DNA of 64,000 nt. Source: Schmidtea polychroa (lineage: Eukaryota). The translations under genes were made by a program, and so were the position numbers. Positions within the stretch are counted from its first letter, which is position 1. Every line of letters starts with the position of its first letter. The notes beneath the pieces are model-generated. The model did not search any database and had not been told where the DNA came from. It saw nothing but the letters and a program-made list of their open reading frames with translations. This document shows positions 6,226-24,096 of the stretch, in pieces. The stretch spans positions 12,898,001 through 12,962,000 of the forward strand of contig CM097885.1 in NCBI GenBank assembly GCA_044892525.1, written 5' to 3'.

Positions 6226-6794
6226 GTTAGTATTATATAATAATGTATATGTTAAAGGAATATGATAGACGAAATGATTAATATAAAAAGTCTACATTAT
6301 AAGTCACATACCAATTTTGATTGGTTGAAAAGGTCGTTTTAAAATCTAACTATTCATTATATATTATATGGTAGAAGAGAAATGGATACAGAATTTCACG
6401 GTTAACCTTGTGATGAAATTTAGTGTTTCAAAATGCGGTGATACCTTGATATAAATCTTGTTTAGACGGAAAATATTTCCCAAGGTATTTAACCTTTCTT
6501 TGGAATAGGACTGGAGCGCTATAACTATCTGTGAATTTTCACATGATTTTTTGTTTTTTCTCATAAAGTTTAATTAAAACAGAATAATCATTCTCCATTC
6601 ATTTCTTACGTGACAAATATATATTTCGTATGTTTTATTGAAATGATTAATCTTATAGTTTGACATTTATAAGATATATCCAGAGATTTAAAAATTTATT
6701 TACCACAACTTTTCCCTATTTAAACAAAATTAATTTTTGTTAAAACAATTTGTGGTTAATATTTATAATCACAACAATTAATTTACGTGGTATC

Positions 6795-7050
6795 TTGACA
6801 AGTGGTTCACTGACTTATGGTTCATCGACAAATGGTTCATGACAATTGGTTCACAACATTTGCTTCACGATATTTGGTTCACTATCTTTTTTCAGTGTTC
6901 TCGTAGACTAATACTGTCAGATAGAGACAGAATTTATGACAATGTTACTAAATTGGATAAAATTACGTATGATTGTGACCGCTATTTTCAAATTGTTATT
7001 GCCACACAATAGTAAACCAAATGTCGTGAACCAAATGCCGTGGATCCAAT
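6795..7050. repeat. MITE-like repeat with ~14-bp TGGTTCAC subrepeats, inverted at the two ends
   Basis: Tandem tggttca(c/t) units at 6800-6885; inverted gtgaacca-type units at 7010-7050. Confidence 0.5.
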
Positions 7051-7805
7051 TTACATATATTGAAAATTATTTCACATGAAGAAAATCATAATAAGTCCTA
7101 AAATATTTATTTATATATAATTAAAAGTTAAAACAATAATTATATATAAATAAGGCTTTCATTCCGGGATCCCACGAATCGGTAAATCACTTTTATTTGG
7201 TTTCAATGTTTGTTGTTTATAGGACAAATCAATTTGTTGACTGCACAGTGCATTGACTGGGATTTGTAAGTCAACAATTTTAATTAAAAATCAATATTTT
7301 CTGTTTATCTTTTTTAAGAAATGCAATTAAACTCCCTGCATTAAACGTGCCGTGAATAACGCACATACCTACAGACAAGGTAACTCTCTTGAAAATTTAA
7401 AGAAAGTTTTTTAATATTTATTTGCATATATATATATATATATATATATTATCATTCGGTGGTATCAAATTGTTGTCAAAATAATTACATTCAAATATTC
7501 ACATGGCCGAATTGTCCACAAAATATTTTTGCCATAATTAATAAACTTGACAAAATGGTAAAGTAAATATGAAATTACATCCATAGAATAAATTAATTTA
7601 TATAAAATAATTATACTAAATATGGAGATGTCTTTTTGAATTAATTTACTCAATGTCCTCCTCAATTGCTAAATTTGGGAAAATTTGTCAAGATTGATTA
7701 ACAGCTAAAAATTTATAAAATTTCATTTAATAGTCGGTAAATATGTTTTACAAGTTTTTTAATTTATTTTTCCATTTTTTAGTTTTATATCATTATTAAT
7801 ATTAA

Positions 7806-7872
<67 letters not shown>

Positions 7873-7876
7873 ATTA

Positions 7877-7971
<95 letters not shown>

Positions 7972-8019
7972 GATATTGTTTTTTAATAATAATTGAGACA
8001 AGGAAAGATACGAATAATT

Positions 8020-8995
8020 GTTGGAATCTATTATTTTTGTCAACACTGCAATCATTATTTATATGGAAAACGGTTCATTTTGAGAACGGTCCATAAAGCT
8101 ATCACGTTTATGTTATCCACAAAGAAATCAATAACAACGCAATTTCAGACATGGATAAACTACCTCAGTAGTCTGGATATTGAAATAGAGTATAGAAAAG
8201 GTACGGATCATGCAAATGTAGACATGCTGTCAAGAAGTACATGTGGAACATGCACACAATGTTTATTGGTACACGAAGACGCAAAAGTGGAAAGAATGAA
8301 AACCAGAAGAATAAACACGATGGAAAAAGCTGAAGATTATAAGTGGCAAAGAGATAATACATAAATAGAACAAATAAAAATTTTGCCGCTAAACAGTATG
8401 AGGAAACGGTGAAGGAAACAATACTACAAAAATGGATTCTTAGATTTGGAACACCAAAGGAAATTCAAACAGATTGTGGAAAAGTATTTGAATATAAGAC
8501 GATGAAAGATTTTACAAAATCAATGGGAATTACACAATGTTTTTCAAGTCCATACCACCATAATACAAATGGTTATATAAATGCATCATTAAAAAAAATA
8601 GAACAGATTGGGCAGTGATCATACCAGAGATTGATTTTACCATGAATGCAACATTTCAGAAATCAATTGGGCGAAGTCCCGCAGAAGTAATATTTGGAAG
8701 TAAAATAGCTCGAGAACAATTTCATAGTAAAGCGCCGATTTCACAAACAGAAGATACACGAGAAACAACGCAGACAAAAAAAATCATTCAATATTGGAGG
8801 TTCTGGTAAAAGTAGAATCAAGAACGAAAGACAAGGAAAGATACGAAGGGCCATACAGAATAATGCAGAAGATCCATCATCGCCGATATCTGCTACAAGA
8901 CTAAAGTGGGAAAATGCTTCAAAGAAATGTTGAAAAGATGAAGAAATTTCTTAAAGAAGGGGGATGTGAGGTGTTTTCAGCTGAGAATTAAATAT
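8020..8995 (+). mobile_element. Ty3/Gypsy LTR retrotransposon pol remnant (RNase H, integrase core, GPY, PPT, start of 3' LTR)
   Basis: HYLYGKRFILRT...IEYRKGTDHANVDMLSR; RFGTPKEIQTDCG...SPYHHNTNG; GPY motif; polypurine tract AAAGAAGGGGGA at 8953-8964 followed by TG; stops and frameshifts. Confidence 0.9.
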
Positions 8996-10387
8996 TTCAA
9001 TGATTTATTAAGATAATTTTAAACTGTAAATAATAGACTATTAAAATAACTTTTAAAATAATTTTTAAATTGAAATTTTTAAATTTTTAAATTGAAAAAT
9101 TAAATTATCTTTTTAAAAGAAGTTTTGTTAATAAATAATTTTTAAATAAATATATTTTAAATATCGAAATTTTAATAAATGGTTTTGAAAATATTTTATT
9201 CATGCTGAAAATTAGTTTGAAAATTATACAATATTTCAGTAAATAAATACTTGGAATAATGACGTTAACTTTTGAACCAGATTTAAAAAATAATTTAGAA
9301 GATGTTTTAGCCGCTTCTAATAATAATAATAATATTTATTATTTTTTAATAAACTAAATTGTTATTTCCTTTACTTTATTATTTCCTCAGGCTATTTATT
9401 AATCTAAAAATAAAGAAAATGTAATAATAATAATAAATATTATTATTAATATTAATGCATATTTTTGTTCACTTTTGAATTTTTTTTATTTTCTTTTAAA
9501 ATTTTATTTGCTTTCAATAAAATAATTTTCAATATCACATATAGACAAAGTAATGAAAAAATAAATGAAATTTTTAAAAGAAAATAATAATAATTATTAT
9601 TATTATAGTTATTTAAAACAATAAAGTGATAATTTAAGCCTTTTGCTGCGAATAATGTATTTAATGACAAAATTTTCGACTATAAGATAGCCCTTTCTCC
9701 GTATTTCCAAGTATTTTGCCCGGCTTAGGCCTTTTGAAAGTATAAAGTGATAATATCTTGGTAGCAGCATTTATTATTTAAAGTGATAATTTAAGCCTTT
9801 TGCTGCAAATAAAGTATTTAATGAAAACATTTTCGACTTGAAAACATTTTCCTTGTCAATCTCCTTTTATACTATTATCCCTATTATAATTATAATCGAG
9901 CCATTTAAAATTAATACGTTATCTCCAAGAAAGATGAAAAATCCAAAATGAATGACCAAGTATTGAAATAATCACACTATAAATAATTAATTAGTCATAA
10001 TTAAATACTTCCTTTCGGTTTTTAACCGAGATTTTCAGTGAAAAATAAGGGTGAATGTAATTTGAGTATATAAAAATCCAAATCCCGGGGATGCTAACCA
10101 GAAAGTTAGTAAATAATAATTCTTAATTATATCCCAACTAAATTTGATGAAAATAAATATACAAAATATAATAATTATAAATTCTATTTATTGGGAATAT
10201 ATGGAAAAGGTACATGAAATTTGGATTCAAATAATTGTAACAATTTATTAATAATATTTTGAGACATTTTTCAGTTCAATTATGCATAGAAATGTACAGA
10301 TGGAGTTGATAGGTTTAATTCTCTCTATTTTATTGGGAAAATGTTTTTTTTAATTTTATTTCATTAATTAATGAATTAAAAAACTAT

Positions 10388-11141
10388 AGTAGGTAGTTAT
10401 GTGCACTCTAGATCCAGATACCCCCCCCTATTTTTTTTGTAAATTTTTAAAAGACCCCCCCCCTTTAATTTTTTTAAAAATTTTTTAAAAGACCCCCCCC
10501 CCATAATTTTTTTTTTAATTTTTAAAATACCCCCCCCTATTTTTTTAATTATCGATTACGTAATAATTTTACTTTTTGTTTTAATCATCGATTACGTAAT
10601 AATCTAAAAATTTTTAAAACGCCGATTACATCATTGATTTTAATTTTTTATAAGAATTTTTTATGTCATTATACTTGAAATTTAATTCTCTGTTAAATGA
10701 GACTATGATGTAATCAAAATTCTGAAATTTCATTTTTAGTACACGATTTTTAAATTTACACATCTTTTTAAACAAATTGAGATGTTTTCACTCAAACAAT
10801 ATATAGATAGAATTTTAATCTCTATAAAATGACATCATTATTTACTTCAAATTCATAATCATAACACCTTAAATAATGTATTTTTCAGCCAACTTTTACA
10901 TACACACATATTTTCAACTTTTAAAAAATACAAATTAATCATCTATACTTAACTCATAGTAAATAATTATATTAAAAGACATATTAAAAGATGTATTAAA
11001 AACTAAACATTTATTAAAATCCCAGAGAAATTCGAGCACTATCTAATTTCCAAATCGGTGATATGACATCTTTCTCATCCAGTTTATATCCCTGTATTGA
11101 AATATTTACAAACCAGCTTTCCCCATCTTTATATTCAATTT
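10388..11141 (+). repeat. Left terminal inverted repeat of the Polinton-like element
   Basis: Reverse complement of 17189-17874, with indels in the C-tract region. Confidence 0.93.
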
Positions 11142-11487
11142 CTTCAAAGGCATCATGAAAACGAGAATTTCGATTGTTGATGATTATATTTCCATTGCAA
11201 CTTAGATTCTTATTGATTTTCCCCAACACTTTATTTACTGCAACAACATCTTCTTTTGTTATATGAGCAATGAAACTTGAATATTGCGACTTGATCAATT
11301 TGACTGCATTTGAGAATTTATATGGAATTTCGTCTACCAAGAAATATATCTTATGGTTATGATACATTTGTACTGGTTTCACATCATTCTTGGCATGCTT
11401 CGTCTCAGTTATTTTCTTAATTGGGCTTGTTTCTTTCAATAAATTAGAAAATGTTTTCTCACCAAAAACGTTCTTCTTGGATTGCAT
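11014..11487 (-). CDS. Polinton accessory protein of unknown function (157 aa)
   Basis: Intact, intronless ATG-TAA ORF with normal protein composition; stop codon overlaps AATAAA. Confidence 0.75.
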   Translation of the reverse strand: MQSKKNVFGEKTFSNLLKETSPIKKITETKHAKNDVKPVQMYHNHKIYFLVDEIPYKFSNAVKLIKSQYSSFIAHITKEDVVAVNKVLGKINKNLSCNGNIIINNRNSRFHDAFEEIEYKDGESWFVNISIQGYKLDEKDVISPIWKLDSARISLGF

Positions 11488-11840
11488 TTTTTAAAAAATA
11501 ATGACTATGATGTCATTTTTTCTCTCTTTTATACTTGTGTATAACCAATCAAATTAATGCATTTGTATTGCAAACAACATGCATGTGTCATTGACCTTCG
11601 TGTGTGACCTTTGTATGTGACCTTTACCTTTGTGACCTTTGTATGTGATTCATACAGGGTTTGCATATGTATTGCAGATGTATTGCAAATTAGTTAATTA
11701 AAACGTGTACTAATTAGTGTGATATTAAAAATATTATACTAATACATGTAACATAAAAATACTATAACATAAAAATAGTGTACTATCACAAGTAACAATA
11801 TAAAATTAGAAAACAATGTATTATAATAACTAAACATTTA

Positions 11841-12200
11841 TTAGTGATCTACAATTAATGAAAAGTGAGCTTTTCTCAACTCTTTTCTTAATATCCATAT
11901 ATTATACTTCTTCTCTCTATCAATACATCCTTCGCACTTGTATGGGCATACTGATGGCTTGCTGCTGTCAACAGGGTCAAGATCGTCTTCTAACGTCCTC
12001 AAGTGATCAAACAAGACCACATTCAAATCTATTCCGGTAGACATCCATATTCTGAATGGAATAATCTCTGGTGCCCAATAGATTAGATCCTTTAAAATAT
12101 TCGGATATAATTCCCCCATTTTCCCAATCAGAATCTGTATCATTTTTTCTAAAACATTTAAAATTATAAATATAAAAAAGCAATAATCAAAATATACCAT
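11841..12200 (-). CDS. Polinton accessory protein of unknown function (up to 119 aa; CxxxCxxC motif)
   Basis: Intact ORF; shares a 16-nt stop/polyA motif with the neighbouring ORF; the true start may be a downstream ATG. Confidence 0.65.
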   Translation of the reverse strand: MVYFDYCFFIFIILNVLEKMIQILIGKMGELYPNILKDLIYWAPEIIPFRIWMSTGIDLNVVLFDHLRTLEDDLDPVDSSKPSVCPYKCEGCIDREKKYNIWILRKELRKAHFSLIVDH

Positions 12201-12328
12201 TTACAGTTAAATTTGACATTCTCAACTAGTACTAAATAAATGATTAAACTGTTATTGTATATATATATATATACTTATTTCGATACACACCATCAACCAA
12301 TTGGATTCATGCATAGACGATTGTAACT

Positions 12329-12793
12329 TTAGTTTAGGAAAAATTTTAAAAATTCCATGTCATCAATTACTGATTTAATATCTTTAATAATTTTATAAAC
12401 AAGTAAATGGTAATCCAATGTCTTTATACCGAGTATAACTACTTTACCACTATTGAATATGTTAACACACATTGGATTATATTTTATATATCTTAATGCC
12501 GGAAATATTTCTGGTTCATAAATACATTTCATATACTTTGATAAATCATTTAAAATAACATTTGATTCAATATCAGCAGTAACTGTAATCGATTGAATTT
12601 GTAAATCCTTGATTTCATATTTTAAATCTTCAACTTTGATCGATTTTTTACATCCCATTATTCGACATTTACCTGACTTGAAAAATATTATTGAATTTTT
12701 ACCGCTTCTGTCAACAATTTGTTGCGGTTTACCTTTTGGAAATTCCATATGAGATACATCAAATCTACCTTTATAATTTATATTACTAATCAT
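12329..12793 (-). CDS. TATA-binding protein (TBP)-like protein, 154 aa, intronless
   Basis: Two TBP repeats: ISNI...IIFFKSGKCRIMG and IQSI...YEPEIFPAL...NIFNSGKVVILG (canonical TBP: LIFSSGKMVCTG and YEPELFPGL...LIFVSGKVVLTG). Confidence 0.92.
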   Translation of the reverse strand: MISNINYKGRFDVSHMEFPKGKPQQIVDRSGKNSIIFFKSGKCRIMGCKKSIKVEDLKYEIKDLQIQSITVTADIESNVILNDLSKYMKCIYEPEIFPALRYIKYNPMCVNIFNSGKVVILGIKTLDYHLLVYKIIKDIKSVIDDMEFLKFFLN

Positions 12794-12882
12794 ATTTTTT
12801 CAAATAATTTTTCATCAAGTAAACTGATGAATTAAAACAAATATAAACAATATTAATATATATATATAACTAATTTTTTAAA

Positions 12883-13470
12883 ATGGAATTAAGAAATGAT
12901 GCTGTTTATCAAATTGTAGGTCCAAGCGGTAGCGGTAAAACTTTATTTGTTTGTAAATTATTACAATCAAAAATGTTCAAGTCAAAATTCAATAAAATAT
13001 ATTGGCATAGGGGTGCTGATGACGAACATGGTTTGACGCAAGAACAATTCTGTAAATTAAAAATGACAATAATAAAAGGATTTGATAAAAACTGGTCATC
13101 TAGATTACAACAAGGTGATGTAATTATTATTGATGATTTATATCAAGAAGCTAACAAAGAAAAAGATTTTAATAATTTATTTACAAAAATATCTCGACAT
13201 CAAGGTGTAACAGTTATTTTTATAACACAAAATCTGTTTCATCAGGGTGGGAGTCATCGAACTCGGAACTTGAATGTTCAATATCTCGTTATTTTCAAAA
13301 ATCCGAGGGATGCAACTGTTATTGATTTCATTGCAAGACAAGCATATCCAAACAATCGTAACTTTCTAATTGAATCATTTCAAGATGCAACCAAAATACC
13401 CCATGGATATTTATTCTTTGATTTTACTCAGCAATGCATGGATGATGTACGTATTAGGACAGATTTTTAA
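12883..13470 (+). CDS. A32-like (FtsK/HerA superfamily) DNA packaging ATPase of Polinton type
   Basis: Walker A GPSGSGKT, Walker B VIIIDD, arginine finger SRH, ITQ sensor, FKNPRD and HGYLFFD motifs. Confidence 0.93.
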   Translation: MELRNDAVYQIVGPSGSGKTLFVCKLLQSKMFKSKFNKIYWHRGADDEHGLTQEQFCKLKMTIIKGFDKNWSSRLQQGDVIIIDDLYQEANKEKDFNNLFTKISRHQGVTVIFITQNLFHQGGSHRTRNLNVQYLVIFKNPRDATVIDFIARQAYPNNRNFLIESFQDATKIPHGYLFFDFTQQCMDDVRIRTDF

Positions 13471-14710
13471 TAAAGATGGTGTAACAGTTTATAAACAAAT
13501 TAAATTCTGTCTGACTATTAGGCAAGTGTTATTTGTGGTATACTTTTTCAATGTCATTTCTTATCAATTCCCACCATAAAACACAGATACCTAAATATAA
13601 TATATATATTTTAAAGAATTAATTCATGTCTTACATTAATAATAATATTCTTCAGGTATGACGAGTACTTTACTTAATTGCTAAAACATCGGTTTTTCCC
13701 ATTTTTCTTGACATTCGTTGAAAGAAAGTTTACATAATTTAAATCTGATAAGTAAACATTCATGTTGAAGGACACCCACAATCAGCTAATTCATTTAAAA
13801 AAAAATCCAGAACATAAGTCATTTAGTGTTTCACCATTTTGCCTGGTTCATCTTCTTCATAATCCAATAATTCATGTTTTAATAAGAAATCTCTAAATCC
13901 AGAACATAAGTCCTTTAGTATTTCACCATTTTGTCTGGTTCATCTTCTTCATAGTTATATAATTCATTTTCTTCATTACTAAGTAAAATAATTAAAATAT
14001 TGTAGTAAATTCTTTATTTACTTACTTTATGGATACTAAAACAAAAGAAATAAAGTTATATGAAAAGTTTATTTAAATAATTTAAATTTAGTTATTTAAA
14101 AATATTTAAACAATTTAGTTCTTTAAGCATATTTAAACATTAACATTATTATATAGTACAATTTTATATAGTATTATAATATTATAATTTTATGTATTCT
14201 AAATTTATTAATAAATACAGTATAATTTTATATAATATTATAATATTATGTATTGTAAATTTAATATATCCTTCATTTAATTTTTTAAATTCAAAAATTT
14301 ATAATGAAGATTCTTTGAATTAAAAAATATTCTGTTAGTATTTCCAGGCAGAAAACAACGAATTCAATAATTAAAATCTTAATTTTCATGTTGTTAGGGT
14401 TGTGGCCAGAAGTTAATCGCCATCTAATCGTTTGTTCTCAATTTCGCTCATTTTTGTTCAAAACATTCAGGTGAGTTGTTATCTGGAAATTTTCTTTGAG
14501 CTCAGTTTTGTTAAAACACTCACGGTATTTTTAAGGGACGTGTCACTGGAAATAAATTAACAATGGGTAGTTGGTCTGAGCTGTCGATTTATTTTAGAAA
14601 TATGTATATTAAAAACATTTAAGTTATCATTCAGTAAAATAATATAATATTTTTGAGTATGTTTTAGTTAATTTATAAATAACAGTATTTTGATATATCA
14701 ATAAAGACCA

Positions 14711-16795
14711 TATACTCCTAGTTTATCCGACAAAATATTCTGTCCCCCTATGGGTATTGCTAGCAAGGGTACTGGTCACATTCAACATGTCGCAAGGCTA
14801 TATTAATCATTTAGAAATTCTTAGGTAATTTAGTGAGATGATCGTGAATATTTTAAATGTAACTTTACACTTATGTCGAGCGACTAATTTATTGGTTAAC
14901 TTTGTAGTCATTTAAAGCAAAAATTAATTTATTCATCTAATGTTCGTTACAATAGTTAATAATATGAGAAAAACATGGTCATTATTCATTGATAATTTTA
15001 AATTCTTTATCATTTGGAGTAAATTTGTTTGAGGCAAAAATATTTAAAGGAGTCATAATAAAAATATGGTTATCATTTAACCAATTAAGGGGCTTATTAG
15101 TTAGAAATATATATTATAAAGTAACAATTATTTTCTAATTTAATTAGATGATCATTAGACGTAATATATCTTTGCGAGAAATTTAAGATGTTTGAGTAAC
15201 CAAAACATGGATATTTTGTGAGATAAATTTATGAATATTGTTTAATTTTGTTATTTTTAGTCATTTAAAATAATATTTAGCAAAGGTAATTTAGCAAAAT
15301 ATCATTTATCCACCCGATAACAATATTCCTTCAATAGATTAACTGATATTCAACCTATTTAATTTCTGGTAATATAATTAAAATCATAAATTTCCTTCAA
15401 TAAAGTTAAAATTTCTTTAGTTGTCAATGTCCAACTCTTTTAAGTCAATATTTTTGATACCGTTACTTCATAATGAATGTCCGTCTTTATCATGTTAAAT
15501 AAAATAATTTAAAGCAATAACCTTTGATATCAATTATCTCTAAATATTTCAAATATTTCATTGACAAAACCAAGTAAATTAGTCATTAACCCTAAACACT
15601 TCAATAAAATCCTGGATAATTAATAGACTATTTCCCTTGAAACATTTCCAAAAAGAACATCACCCATTTAAATGATCAAAACATTTCCACCGTAACCGAT
15701 CCCTCACCAAATATTTCTACCCCTTTAAACATTCAACCGACAATAACCCCCTTAAATACTATATATTCTCAACTTAACTGAACCCTCACTAAATCCAACC
15801 GACTATAATTTCACCCACTTGAGCCCTTTAATATATCTTAAAATCTATAGAAAATTCTTCAAAATATGAATTTTATTTAATTGTTACAGACATTTTTCCA
15901 TTGAAATAATTTAGTAGCTAAATTCATGTAGTAAGAGCCCATTAAAAAATCAAAATTTACTAAAATCAATATTTTCTACAAATATTTCACCACATTTACC
16001 ATCAAATACCTAACTAGAAATGAAATATATCGATTGATCATAATTCTTCATCGATTCAGCTAATTATATAGCAATTATAACGTGATATATCTTTCAAAAT
16101 CACAAATTTCAGTATATTTTACAATAATTTTTACAAAAATTAAATAATAATAACTTGATTATTGTAAAAACTCTAATTATTAACCTAACTGTCATTAAAA
16201 ATATTATTATTTAAAAGTAAATTTAAAAACAAGTCAATAAAATATAGCAAATTATCAAGAAATTAATTAAATTTGTCTTAGAATTAACACTAAAACGTTA
16301 AATTTCAAAATATTCTTTCAATTATTCACAAAAAGGTTAGTAATAATGTTAGTAAAATCCCGCTAACTCTAAAAATTACCAACGAATTTAATGCTAAATA
16401 ATAACCAAAAATTTGCCTAAATAAAACACACCAGTACCTTTACGACCAGTACCCTTACGAGCAGTACATTAGTAACCTTTACCTTTGCGACCATTACCCA
16501 ATGTGTTAATAAATTTTAGTGTATATATAAAGTATAATATTTAGAATTTCTTTGTTAAAGTTCTGTCTTGAATATTTTTAACAGTACCTTTGCGACCTTT
16601 ACCTTTGTGACCACTACCCAATGTGTTAATAAATTTGAGTGTATATTTAAAGTATAATATTTAAAATTTCTTTGTTAAACTTTTGTCTTGAATATTTTTA
16701 GCAGTACATTTGTGACCTTTACCTTTGTGACCTTTACTTTTGTGACCATTACCCATAGGGGGACAGAATATTTTGTCGGATAGACTCGGACTATA
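14711..16795. mobile_element. Inverted-repeat-bounded segment (MITE-like) inside the Polinton
   Basis: 45-bp inverted repeats at 14711-14755 and 16751-16795 (3 mismatches), TA at both ends; tandem subrepeats at 16430-16760. Confidence 0.65.
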
Positions 16796-16815
16796 TATAA
16801 TTATAATACTTTGAA

Positions 16816-16902
<87 letters not shown>

Positions 16903-17188
16903 TTGTTGCATGTGTGGACACTAATAAGATTTTTTATACATTGTGTGTAATAATATGTTAAAGTTTTAGCAGTACCTTTGTGACCATTACCCTTAGAGGA
17001 ACAGAATATCTTGTCTGATAGACTATATATGATAATACAAAGTATGTGCAATAATTTTATTTTGTCAACTTAACCGTCAAAATAAGTTTTTAAAATAAAT
17101 TTTAAATTTTAAAATACCGCAACGTAATATATTTAAAAAGTATGATGAGTCATGTGTGTCTTTGTATGCAATATGTCTTTGTTATATA

Positions 17189-17874
17189 AAATTGAATATA
17201 AAGATGGGGAAAGCTGGTTTGTAAATATGTCAATACAGGGATATAAAATAGTTGAGAAAGATTTCATATCACTGATTTGGAAATTAGATAGTGCTCGAAT
17301 TTCTCTGGGATTTTAATAAATGTTTAGTTTTTAATACATCTTTTAATATGTCTTTTAATATAATTATTTACTATGAGTTAAGTATAGATGAATAATTTGT
17401 ATTTTTTAAAAGTTGAAAATATGTGTGTATGTAAAAGTTGGCTGAAAAATACATTATTTAAGGTGTTATGATTATGAATTTGAATTAAATAATGATGTCA
17501 TTTTATAGAGATTAAAATTCTATCTATATATTGTTTGAGTGAAAATATCTCAATTTGTTTAAAAAGATGTGTAAATTTAAAAATCGTGTACTAAAAATGA
17601 AATTTCAGAATTTTGATTACATCATAGTCTCATTTAACAGAGAATTAAATTTCAAGTATAATGACATAAAATATTCTTATAAAAAATTAAAATCAGTGAC
17701 GTAATCTACATCATAAAAAATTATTACGTAATCGATGATTAAAACAAAAAATAAAATTATTACGTAATCGATAATTAAAACAAAATTTAAATTTAAAAAA
17801 AAAATAAAAATAAAGGGGGGGGGGTATCTGGATCTAGAATGCACATGGATCTAGAGTGCACATAACTACCTACT
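17189..17874 (-). repeat. Right terminal inverted repeat of the Polinton-like element
   Basis: Reverse complement of 10388-11141; includes a copy of the 3' end of ORF 11014-11487. Confidence 0.93.
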
Positions 17875-19891
17875 AACTATGAACCCTTCTTTAAAAGGTG
17901 TACCTTTTCTTTGTGATTTATTTCTGGAAAACTGATCCAGTTTAAAATGTAAAAGAAGGTTTCCTTGGATTTAGAAATTAAACTTAGAGCGAACCGAGTT
18001 GCTCTGTTACGTAGGCTGCAATATGACATCTGTAATGATCTGGGAAACATTTGGAATCGTTTTTTTTAATAATCATGTTTTTCTATTTCAAAAATTATTG
18101 CTATATAAATAAATGATAAGATAAGCCTTTTGCTTTTAAGTATGCGTTAAATAAACAAAGTTCGATTTGAAATTGAAAAGGATTGTTTTATCATTTATTT
18201 GTTTAAGATTTAATTTATGCTGCTACCAAAAAATCATCATTTTATTATATTAAAAATATTGTTAAATAAACCTTCACAACCAACTCATGAATCGTTCATA
18301 TCAAATTCTAATGGCGTTACAATTAATTTTATCATGTCATTCCTAGCTGTAAACTTATTTTAACTTGGTTATGGAAACATTACAGGCAAATTAGTTTTAT
18401 AGCAATTGTCCATTTTTTGTTGAATGTAACCATATATATTGATGATTGTTATTCTAATTGTTTCCATTTTTTCCTTTCTACTTTTATCCAACAGTTTAGT
18501 AGTGAGTAAATCAAAATGGTATTTGTCTCAAATGTTTATATCTGCTACCATACTTACGGGATAATATTCTCTTGTGGGCTTAATGAATAAAGCGGTTACG
18601 CTATGGAACAAATGGTGCATTCTCCCTTATACACCCGTTTCCACATGTTAAAAGTCTCTATAATGCATGTTGGTGTGTTCATCAATCGATGACTCACCAT
18701 TTATGAGAGAGTTTATTTTATTTTTTCATTTTCAATTCAATTTTATTTATGATTTTAGAAGTAAGTTTTTTAAATTTAAGTACACTATAGGACATTGATT
18801 TATCATGCGGACATTCAATTAGCTAAAGATTTTCCATTTAAAATTAATTAATTATAAAAAAATATACAAGAATATGTCAGAAACTTCATCAGAATCGACT
18901 ATTTCATTACAAGAAATACATAGATGAATGCTCTTCAATAGACGGACGAACAAGAGCTTCGGTAGATCACGAGTAGACAATAGAATTTATAACAATATAC
19001 CAACAAATCGAGGTCTCAATTTTCAAAGATGAGCTAATCCATTTACAGTAATATATCTTCATTGACTATTCAAATAGAAAAATTGCCATATAATCCATTT
19101 TTGAACCCCATCGAAAGTGTTGAGCAAAATTAAAAATGGGGTAAGGACTAAAGTTTCTTCGGTTGATGGATTTTCCAGACAGATTTACCTTCAATGAATG
19201 ATTTACTGCAATATCCCAAGCAGTTAACAAGGAACTTCGAAAACCAGATCATAATAATTTCAAAAATCATATTAATAATCACATTAAAGATTCTTCCCTA
19301 AATTCTTGATATTTTAATAAAACTATGAAAAAGTTAATGTATATTATAATAAATAAATAAATATCTTACTTCTTTATTCATTATTTTAACAAAAAATCTT
19401 AAAATTAACTAAAATCCAGAACAAAGCTTATTTGACAAAGCTAAATGAATGTCTCATTTATGATAATTAAATGCGCTTTGGTGTATGTGTTCTGTGTTTG
19501 TATGTAAAATTATTTTTCTGTCACTTTGTCAATTCCTATAATAAAACTTTTAACATTCGGAACATTAAATTTTTGCACACAGGTAAGTTTGTGTGTTGCT
19601 ATAATATAATTTTATCGTTTTTTTTTAGATTATAGAAACTTTTATATTGTGGATTTAGGTGTATTGTATGTGTCAAATAAACGAGATGTTTATTTGTGCG
19701 TGTGTATGTTTTCAGTTTTTTTCTGCGTTTAAATTAAGCATGTGTTGTATGTGTATGTTTGTGTGTGTGTGATAAAATTTACTGTAAGATATTAGATTGA
19801 ATATCAAAATATTTTAAATGTTTTGGAGATTACTAGTTTTGTTTAAAAATACGAAACGAATCGATATATTTACTGATTCATAGTCAAGCTT

Positions 19892-19972
<81 letters not shown>

Positions 19973-21008
19973 AGAATCCGTTGATATTTCAAATAATGAA
20001 ACAAAAAATTATGAATGATATTGCACTAAGTATGGTATTAGGAAAAGAACATATATAAAATAATATTTTATATAAAAATTATACTCATTCAAAATTTATC
20101 AGGACCTGTTATATCAATGATATATATTTTACCTTCTCATCCATAAGATTCTAGTTTTCAAAGAGTCAAAAAGCTATAAAATAAAAACATGAGTTTTAAA
20201 ATTTTGGCAGAAAATAATTAAAAAATTATTCCATTGTATGAAATAGATATCAACATTGGAATAAGCTTCCGAGATTAGTTCTATAATAATTTTAGCAAAT
20301 TTGAAATTAATTTTGTGGAATAACAGAACAAATACCAAATAAAATTACCCAAGATTCATCATACCCAGAGCTGATTAGTTAAAATTAAAAGATTTATAGG
20401 ATAACACTTGACTATGAAGTTTGAAATGTTTGTGTTGGATAGAAAAAAAATAAACATTGATCTATAGTCACAATGAAAATGAATGAAATTCTAATGGAAA
20501 ACATAGAAATAGATTAAATATCACATAAGTTTTTATATCTAAACATAAAATAATTAATTCTAAAAAAGACACCAGTGAATTTATCAATCTTATTTTTTGT
20601 TAATTTTGTTGGAATATTTTAATTTTCACATGTTTCTTGGTGATTTAAAATTTTAAAAATTAATTTAAACTTTTAAAATTGGCTAAAATAATTAAATCAA
20701 ATAATATTTTAAAATGTATAAGAATGTTTAAAAATATAATTAAAATACATAATATTGAGTTTTGAAATTTTAATTTTGATTTTTTAAGGGGAAATGTTTC
20801 TAAAAGGGATTTTATTTGTTATTCTTTTTAATTTTTCTTAAATGATGTCCCAATTATAAAAACATTCCTTCACCAAGCTTTTTTATCCTAAATTCTTTAT
20901 GGTTCCACGACTTGAATAAACCATTTCCATATTTATGAATACATATTTATTCATATTCAATTCAGCAATGAATTTTATTTTCTTTTTTCTGTAAAATTTT
21001 ATATATAG

Positions 21009-23346: not shown

Positions 23347-24096
23347 TAGAGTCAGCATCGTGATTGGTGTAAAACATAGGTGGCCAAAGCGTTGACCGTG
23401 ATCTACCAGTAACCCGTGAAGCTTTTTCGGCCACACACTGTTTAATATTTCTGTTAAGGGTTCAAACCAATTTTGAATTAATAAATATTAATATTAATTT
23501 AAGAAATGCAGTTGATTCGCGTTTATGATTGCATTTATCTGAAAGACTTTTCTAAAACATAAATTTTCCTAAAATTCAATACATTTTTTTTCTACAATAA
23601 TTTCTGATTTGACCTTGTACCGCTTTTGAGTTTACGGAGCGATAGTTGATAAAAATACTGATGGAGGTGGATTGATATTGACATTAAAACTTTGGTGATG
23701 AATCAATAATAAACTATTTTTATATTGCATATTCAACTGTGTGTATTTTAACAACGGATATTATATACATACAAAGACAATACAAAAAATCACATTAAAA
23801 ACAAGAAGTAAAGTAAGTATTCCTCCCACAAACTTTACACTGCATACTTGCAACAACTTGTTTATATGATGTTAAAAATATACGCAAACATGAAGTCAAA
23901 TTATCATTTGTCAATCATAAACGCGAATCAACTGCATTTCTTAAATTAATATTAATATTTATTAATTCAAAATTGGTTTGAACCCTTAACAGAAATATTA
24001 AACAGTGTGTGACCGAAAAAGCTTCACGGGTTACTGGTAGATCACGGTCAACGCTTTGGCCACCTATGTTTTACACCAATCACGATGCTGACTCTA
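23347..24096. mobile_element. Foldback element with ~185-bp near-perfect inverted arms
   Basis: 23347-23531 is the reverse complement of 23912-24096, with one mismatch seen. Confidence 0.85.

Follow-up and report, generated by a model that had tools for sequence, protein, structure and literature searches.

Structure of the insertion and its host intron

The window analyzed here is a 64-kb stretch of Schmidtea polychroa DNA, in which an element of 7,487 nt (10388-17874) with AG..CT ends lies in an intron of a neurotransmitter receptor gene.

6226-21008, + strand: host intron of a GluN2-type NMDA-receptor subunit gene, 14,783 nt, GT..AG
10382-10387, + strand: left TSD AACTAT (sequence comparison)
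10388-11141, + strand: left TIR, 754 nt, beginning AGTAGG; a 38-bp C-run repeat is present in it ~3 times, and the SSB gene reaches into it with its 3' end
17189-17874, - strand: right TIR, 686 nt, terminating CCTACT, with a 17-bp duplication close to the terminus
17189-17316, in the right TIR: non-functional copy of the SSB 3' end
17875-17880, + strand: right TSD AACTAT (sequence comparison)

The intron limits were set by splice signals and in-frame joining only. The exons downstream match GluN2 and the domains of ionotropic glutamate receptors, and a Pfam search of the 3' flanking exon gave no match. A preliminary description had placed the insertion in half of a 14.8-kb intron of a neurotransmitter receptor gene, and had reported AG...CT termini, long TIRs and a perfect AACTAT TSD. 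All of these were seen again: the element occupies 51% of the intron, and the gene is of the GluN2 type. A 6-nt match between the flanks is expected by chance with a probability of ~1e-3 from the local composition. The outer 29 nt of the element ends are perfectly inverted, and the end motif AGTAGG//CCTACT is a 5/6 match to (AGT)2//(ACT)2. By sequence, the cis ends for helper enzymes are intact. The TIRs share 93% identity across 650 columns (blastn) and 97% across an ungapped core of 534 nt, with 4 differences in 379 nt (~1% apart) in the non-coding TIR. The divergence is graded, from ~1% in the outer part to ~5% in the inner, SSB-derived part, where all changes are non-synonymous. Because the last ~42 SSB codons fall within the left TIR, the right arm carries a decaying partial copy of them. 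The TIR DNA matched none of 81 fetched metagenome loci and no viral contig (TIR end: 0), and blastn in the 64-kb window, the sole DNA searched for a second copy of the element, found none.

Genes in the left part of the element

The four ORFs of at least 100 aa all lie within 11014-13470, as in the preliminary description, which had them in the left ~3.1 kb. An exact look-up in a protein collection found none of five window proteins.

11014-11487, - strand: intact gene for a 157-aa ssDNA-binding protein (SSB, ORF1), T7 gp2.5/Enc34-type OB fold (predicted structure and homologues)
11590-11650, - strand: AGGTCA-type words in a short tandem cluster that lies upstream of the SSB gene (sequence repeats)
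11841-12200, - strand: ORF2, 100-119 aa, without assigned function, two full-length homologues
12329-12793, - strand: intact gene for a 154-aa TBP-like protein (mini-TBP), head-to-head with the ATPase (Pfam TBP, E 3.3e-15)
12883-13498, + strand: A32/FtsK-type packaging ATPase, frameshifted near its end (Pox_A32, E 2.9e-6)

The identity of the SSB was reached via its neighbours and its fold. Its model (pLDDT 83) resembles the T7 gp2.5/Enc34/ASFV CP312R SSBs (PDB 1je5, 5odk, 4klk, 8hw5) in the predicted OB fold over 101-125 residues, the four best matches being 4klk (Z 7.5), ASFV CP312R (Z 7.3), Enc34 SSB (Z 7.2) and T7 gp2.5 (Z 6.6). These Z values, all below 8, are middling, the identity is 9-12%, and DNA binding is putative. 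The protein also matches giant-virus proteins (E 3.5e-6) and has homologues in 22 of the 81 metagenome loci, and none of its seven conserved columns is changed; an SSB word search gave 0 of 25 candidates. TATA-like and CCAAT-like words lie upstream of the gene, and the AGGTCA-type cluster there may have a regulatory role. A 25-nt word of this cluster is found again at 16711-16735 (25/25 nt).

ORF2 has two full-length homologues, P0092 (E 2.7e-8) and P0096 (E 8.9e-4), with 31-34% identity and Cys-rich C-halves. Six of its eight matches were dropped as partial alignments to long repetitive proteins, and it had no noteworthy Pfam match, no Atlas match and no homologue in the 81 loci. The mini-TBP has 88 homologues of 38-66% identity, with none of 35 conserved columns changed.

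The ATPase reading frame is lost in a T run near 13465, so that the ORF stops at 13470 and the homology runs on in another frame to 13498. Where the homologues have their stop, none follows here: after the terminal ATPase motif the homologues end within 0-7 residues, whereas the element's frame continues for 26. The ORF is shorter than all 75 homologues (by 10-18 aa). The frameshift could be a sequencing error. The best homologue stands at 90%, the end branch is 0.053, and 2 of 112 conserved columns are changed against 75 peers. A faster decay of the ATPase than of its peers, suggested by 8 of 127 columns against 10 peers, was thus rejected as an outgroup effect.

A gene-free stretch follows the ATPase

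13499-13520, no strand: inferred left deletion breakpoint, where homology to gene-complete relatives ends
13506-17188, no strand: the 3.7-kb gene-free stretch, negative in Pfam, Rfam and relic searches
13803-13970: 92-bp duplication
14710-14780 versus 16726-16796 and 16955-17025: ~70-bp inverted repeat
16462-16732: 120-bp tandem array
16816-16901: (AAT)29 run

Matches to relatives (blastn) break off abruptly at 13498-13505, where the last codons of the ATPase lie. The preliminary description saw no polymerase, integrase or capsid gene in the element and proposed a six-frame HMM search for pPolB, MCP and rve relics, and this search bears it out. Pfam found no family in any of the six frames of 13500-17190, Rfam gave no match, and profiles built from the relatives detected no core-gene relic in 13506-17188 (best score 7.0 bits). 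These profiles recovered 22 of 22 unaltered slices of 300 nt and 39 of 46 of 150 nt. In six frames neither PolB (power 10/10 at 300 nt) nor rve integrase (3/3 at 300 nt) had a match; nor did the major capsid and the protease, the protease profile standing outside the power figures. The 7.0-bit candidate, a minor-capsid relic at 15740-16006, was rejected, as 2 of 12 host controls scored as high (0 of 6 shuffles).

The longest gene-free stretch in 21 fetched loci of at least 4.5 kb, which are fragments from other hosts, is 1,839 nt. Host DNA has 16 (AAT) runs in 56.5 kb and the relatives have 1 in 278 kb, and GC and CpG do not distinguish host from element DNA. The ~70-bp inverted repeat (77-85% identity) bounds 2.1-2.3 kb.

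Relatives and comparison with known elements

Of 15 metagenome loci of at least 5 kb, four combine homologues of the TBP and the ATPase with rve integrase, double-jelly-roll capsid (E 1e-14) and pPolB, and one has an adenain-type protease (Peptidase_C5) beside such homologues. The PolB of one such locus, L006, matches a PHROG DNA polymerase at 5e-20 and has no PDB or Pfam DNA_pol_B_2 match. In viral contigs the ATPase was found at no locus and the TBP at one weak locus, L001. Because TBP and ATPase occur together with integrase, capsid and pPolB in the relatives, the assignment of the element to the Maverick/Polinton lineage is supported. The Polinton-like origin proposed earlier is thus upheld through the retained genes, the TIR DNA itself being without match in the fetched loci. 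The core genes begin 102-246 nt after the ATPase in all five close relatives measured, and the block that reaches to the distal PolB end spans 8,252 nt or more in L006 and 8,918 nt or more in L013.

The element shares with Mavericks/Polintons (adintovirus-type; PMC8097293, PMC8502044) the 6-bp TSD, the AG..CT ends and the packaging ATPase; its end AGTAGG is one base off their (AGT)2 motif, and its TIR length is inside their range of 46-1,447 bp. The Maverick genes for rve integrase, double-jelly-roll capsid and pPolB occur in its relatives. However, the element is only 7.5 kb and lacks polymerase, integrase, capsid and protease, and its mini-TBP and gp2.5-type SSB are outside the eight core genes of vertebrate Mavericks. 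A preprint (10.1101/2025.02.07.637071) describes polB-less polintons of Pieris and other insects that stayed mobile, and other polintons with gene-containing TIRs. The polB-less forms and our element are both non-autonomous polinton derivatives between TIRs. The former lack polB, carry LINE or LTR cargo and have more than one insertion shown, whereas in the latter the ATPase is the sole core gene left, no cargo is recognizable, and one site is known. The MELD viruses (Starrett et al., 10.1101/697771) also combine a TBP-like gene with a polinton-like linear DNA element, a likeness by label only, the label coming from figure legends in a section on non-animal eukaryote data. In the literature searched, mostly listings and passages, we found no paper dedicated to a Maverick derivative carrying these genes.

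Origin of the element

PolB, rve integrase, capsids, protease and an intact ATPase, which characterize an autonomous Maverick, are all missing, and the element cannot copy, package or insert itself. It is probably a young, non-autonomous, dead-end deleted copy of a TBP-bearing Maverick/Polinton, likely a single one. That it is young is suggested by the ~1% divergence of the TIRs, the perfect TSD, the intact TBP and SSB and the end branch and conserved columns of the ATPase. A parent of ~16-17 kb would have lost one block of 8-10 kb, comprising a small ORF, integrase, minor and major capsid, polymerase and probably the protease, and the deletion would have brought the end of the ATPase next to non-coding DNA from the right part of the same parent. 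The insertion would have been made by an rve integrase. The full parent may have inserted first and lost the block at this site; alternatively, a template switch of the polymerase during copying of the linear DNA may have produced a short molecule that an intact sibling's integrase inserted once. With both ends kept, the element would remain a passive substrate for a helper. The preliminary description offered a deletion after insertion or a satellite moved in trans; the size arithmetic favors a single internal deletion: a block of at least 8.3-8.9 kb plus 7.5 kb gives at least 15.7 kb, which is within the range of intact vertebrate Mavericks (12.7-24.6 kb, PMC8097293), and thus one internal deletion of a normal-sized parent fits. 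Moreover, the broken gene is the ATPase, whose packaging function is useless without capsids, and this also speaks for deletion. Against it stand the gene-free stretch, longer than any in the fetched loci, with a host-type (AAT) run inside, and the lack of a stump of any core gene, an outcome that a random deletion need not produce.

The published polB-less polintons, still mobile according to the preprint (10.1101/2025.02.07.637071), count both against a dead-end copy and for an amplified non-autonomous family, in which a helper's protein-primed polymerase copies the 7.5-kb form from its TIRs and the helper's integrase puts the copies into many sites, with SSB and TBP perhaps kept as aids to its own or the helper's replication or transcription. 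Both ends are intact and ~1% apart, as such a family would have them, and so are SSB and TBP. However, intact ORFs are expected of any copy so young, and proteins that act in trans would give a passenger little cause to keep them; the undecayed state of SSB and TBP (0/7 and 0/35 columns) fits youth and equally selection. We regard this family as possible but doubtful. It is unlikely that the element belongs to a satellite lineage of the defective-interfering kind, which, without enzyme and capsid genes, would keep the early helper genes SSB and mini-TBP, be copied and inserted by intact siblings and stand between full Mavericks and gene-less mirror-image satellites. If it does, the TIR gradient would record repeated end-to-end copying in protein-primed replication.

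The unusual length of the gene-free stretch, its host-type (AAT) microsatellite and the internal inverted repeat, which could mark a nested element, might instead point to a recombinant, in which the gene-bearing left end of a Maverick was fused to foreign DNA (an arm of a gene-less palindromic satellite, host DNA or a nested transposon). Yet the 25-nt word that also occurs upstream of the SSB gene suggests that the right part is the element's own DNA, the sizes sum without filler, and GC and CpG do not set the stretch apart from either source, which leaves such a fusion very improbable. Even less credible is a longer element collapsed or mis-joined in the assembly. The setting is very repeat-rich, but the sequence at the junction is non-repetitive, no direct repeat connects the ATPase end with a distant site, the two TIRs carry distinct variants of their own, and the window contains no N. 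Sampled words of the region occur in 11 public runs from 4 studies, six of them with at least half of the words (best 0.73); as word presence and not alignment, this is no evidence on the assembly.

Significance

A single deleted copy matters little, as defective Mavericks are the norm: 96% of vertebrate copies are defective (PMC8097293). What is more unusual biologically is the presence of TBP and SSB, but these genes are a property of the whole lineage. The junction at ~13500 is a clean marker for asking whether Maverick derivatives that have suffered a deletion but still bear genes are amplified in trans. Such amplification, if it occurs, would show which cis ends suffice and would tie full elements to gene-less satellites.

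Insertion Site and Host Intron

The element (10388-17874; 7,487 nt) is flanked by two copies of AACTAT, a 6-nt match with a chance of about 1e-3 given the local base composition. Its termini (AGTAGG..CCTACT) are perfectly inverted over the outer 29 nt, and the TIRs extend to 754 nt on the left and 686 nt on the right, differing at their tips by a 38-bp repeat in the left and a 17-bp duplication in the right. These features bear out the preliminary description of an insertion with both ends and a target site duplication. No second element-like sequence was found elsewhere in the 64-kb window. The element makes up 51% of the host intron (6226-21008; 14,783 nt, GT..AG), whose flanking exons join in frame, and the downstream exons match Lig_chan-Glu_bd, Lig_chan and GluN2 subunits in PDB (E = 5e-19), in agreement with the proposed half of a 14.8-kb intron of a neurotransmitter receptor gene. 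The 3' flanking exon has no Pfam match; from position, frame and resemblance to NMDA-receptor sequence, we take the flanking exons to be part of the NMDA receptor.

The same intron bears a broken LTR-retrotransposon pol relic (7993-8990; RT_RNaseH, E = 1.6e-7) and short frames at 18565-19250 that, from their motifs, may represent a decayed LINE reverse transcriptase. In the next intron lies a MITE-like 750-bp fold-back element (23347-24096) with 185-bp arms that are 99% complementary.

Retained Genes and Their Relatives

Four ORFs are retained, all within 11014-13470 and thus in the left ~3.1 kb, as had been noticed before:

11014-11487, minus strand: ORF1, SSB, from predicted fold and neighbour homologues
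11841-12200, minus strand: ORF2, putative protein with two full-length homologues
12329-12793, minus strand: ORF3, short TBP-like protein (Pfam E = 3.3e-15; 88 homologues)
12883-13470, plus strand: ORF4, A32-type packaging ATPase (at most 90% identity to database proteins)

Sequence searches with ORF1 gave no match. The four top-ranked folds for its model (pLDDT 83) are of the gp2.5/Enc34 ssDNA-binding type with middling Z scores (6.6-7.5), the Atlas lead is likewise of this type (0.87), and giant-virus proteins match the model (E = 3.5e-6). The ORF4 frame is broken in a T run near 13465, and all homologues compared (75/75) are longer by 10-18 residues. The homology picks up in another frame and stops at 13498; 72 of the 75 homologues end 0-7 residues past the ATPase terminal motif, whereas the frame in the element continues for 26 more. 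Because the homology ends there and the frame overruns the usual stop, the left breakpoint is placed at about 13499-13520.

A TATAAAC word lies upstream of the ATPase gene. The SSB gene (at 11014) and ORF2 (at 11841), both on the minus strand, end with the same 16-nt word joining the stop codon and an AATAAA signal. AGGTCA-type words, which resemble nuclear-receptor half-sites, cluster on the minus strand at 11590-11650, upstream of the TATA box of SSB, and at 16430-16990, close to the right end, in the place where polB begins in relatives. Relatives show no enrichment of this word.

The TBP profile brought in 81 relative loci, namely one weak viral contig and 80 metagenome loci (the best 80 out of 82 confirmed). 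Among them, the ATPase occurs in 28, ORF1 homologues in 22, and ATPase, SSB and TBP together in 8. In the 15 loci of at least 5 kb (locus L001 left out), integrase is present in 9, major capsid in 6 and PolB in 6, and all three accompany TBP and ATPase in 4; metagenome loci L006 and L013 carry SSB as well. Label checks matched rve (E = 1e-12), Peptidase_C5 (E = 1e-7) and DNA polymerase, and the capsid has a double-jelly-roll fold matched by iridovirus, PBCV-1 and mavirus capsids (E = 1e-14 to 1e-13); a minor capsid is presumed from gene position. Since TBP and ATPase in relatives sit with integrase, capsid and PolB, the Polinton link survives at the gene level; it does not extend to the TIR DNA, which has no match in the 81 loci or in viral contigs.

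Close relatives do not share one arrangement of SSB, TBP and ATPase: gene order and orientation both differ between them. L002 and L053 match the window in having divergent TBP and ATPase genes, which are co-directional in most other loci. Accessory genes of host-like type, for a ubiquitin-conjugating enzyme and a dual-specificity phosphatase, occur in relatives (L013:225-719, L010:4008-4316), and L033 bears a tandem pair of SSB paralogues (L033:1479-2644). Four loci (L055, L057, L063 and L064) form a second, more GC-rich TBP-bearing lineage with PolB upstream of TBP; the small gene between them has a putative parvovirus-type phospholipase-like motif.

Missing Core Genes

Profiles of 41 protein clusters from the fetched loci recover the TBP, ATPase and SSB genes and pick up the 127-nt SSB stump of the right TIR as well (E = 2e-9). 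Integrase, major capsid, protease and PolB are not found in the element. The best match in 13506-17185 has 7.0 bits, equalled by 2 of 12 host control stretches and 0 of 6 shuffles. With L006 held out, 22/22 slices of 300 nt and 39/46 of 150 nt were detected, figures that cover unaltered slices with the protease profile excluded, frameshifted relics being harder to detect. Pfam gave zero matches in six frames of 13500-17190, and Rfam zero in the element. The reported absence of polymerase, integrase and capsid genes is thus upheld.

In relatives, the gap from ATPase to the next gene is 102-246 nt, and the block up to the far end of PolB spans at least 8.3 and at least 8.9 kb. With the missing block added to the element's 7.5 kb, the parent would measure at least 15.7 kb, a normal size for intact vertebrate Mavericks (12.7-24.6 kb, mean 16.9, in the part of PMC8097293 consulted).

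Age and TIR History

In the non-coding TIR core the two arms differ at 4 of 379 nt, a count that omits 8 further differences crowded in 10610-10634 beside the variable tip repeats. The SSB-coding part has 6 differences in 128 nt (P = 0.02, Fisher's exact test). All 6 changes (5 codons) alter residues, and P144, invariant in 20/20 aligned proteins, is lost in the right arm. The right-arm stump is thus the decaying copy, and it appears to predate the most recent homogenisation of the outer TIR. Although the numbers are small, the gradient would fit a replicating lineage, autonomous or not, in which end-to-end copying took place repeatedly. Conserved columns are unchanged in TBP (0/35) and SSB (0/7). 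Faster decay of the ATPase was rejected, as 8 of 127 changed columns became 2 of 112 with more peers (end branch 0.053). Judged from its sequence, the copy is young.

Origin of the Shortened Element

In Mavericks the polymerase initiates at the TIR ends of a linear molecule. Mavericks are described as copied by protein-primed PolB and inserted by a retroviral-like integrase (PMC6431247, in part); the element keeps the integration marks and encodes neither. A single deletion of 8-10 kb may have taken out the core genes. It could have happened at the insertion site once the element was there, or while the element was being copied, in which case the integrase of a sibling would have inserted the shortened molecule. 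The element is probably a one-off copy, unable to move alone. Counted against a simple deletion is that no core-gene stump is left. The gene-free stretch also counts against a one-off deletion: its 3.7 kb exceeds every such stretch in 21 loci of at least 4.5 kb (longest 1,839 nt), and it contains a host-type (AAT)29 run and a ~70-bp inverted repeat of 77-85% (14710-14780, 16726-16796 and 16955-17025; spans 2.1-2.3 kb). One arm lies within a 120-bp tandem array, and the arms may belong to a nested non-autonomous transposon or be repeats native to the element. Recombination with foreign DNA is improbable; in favour of a native origin, a word in the stretch recurs, with 25/25 nt identical, in the sequence upstream of SSB. 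Mis-assembly is very improbable.

Membership of an amplified satellite family is unlikely, and a satellite that amplified keeping only early helper genes slightly more so. Repbase has non-autonomous Polinton entries, which our literature search did not confirm. A preprint, as far as consulted, describes polintons that remained mobile without polB and carry LINE or LTR cargo, and butterfly polintons with gene-containing TIRs (10.1101/2025.02.07.637071), which the TIR here resembles in holding the SSB 3' end; in the portion of PMC3014272 consulted, non-autonomous polintons were not seen in Anolis. Figure legends of Starrett et al. (10.1101/697771, PMC8502044) label genes as TBP-like, and a term search of the main text of PMC11161782 found neither TBP nor SSB.

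The element is a real, young, internally deleted Maverick. According to the part of PMC8097293 consulted, 96% of vertebrate Maverick copies are defective; internally deleted Mavericks are a known kind of element, to which this copy adds a member.
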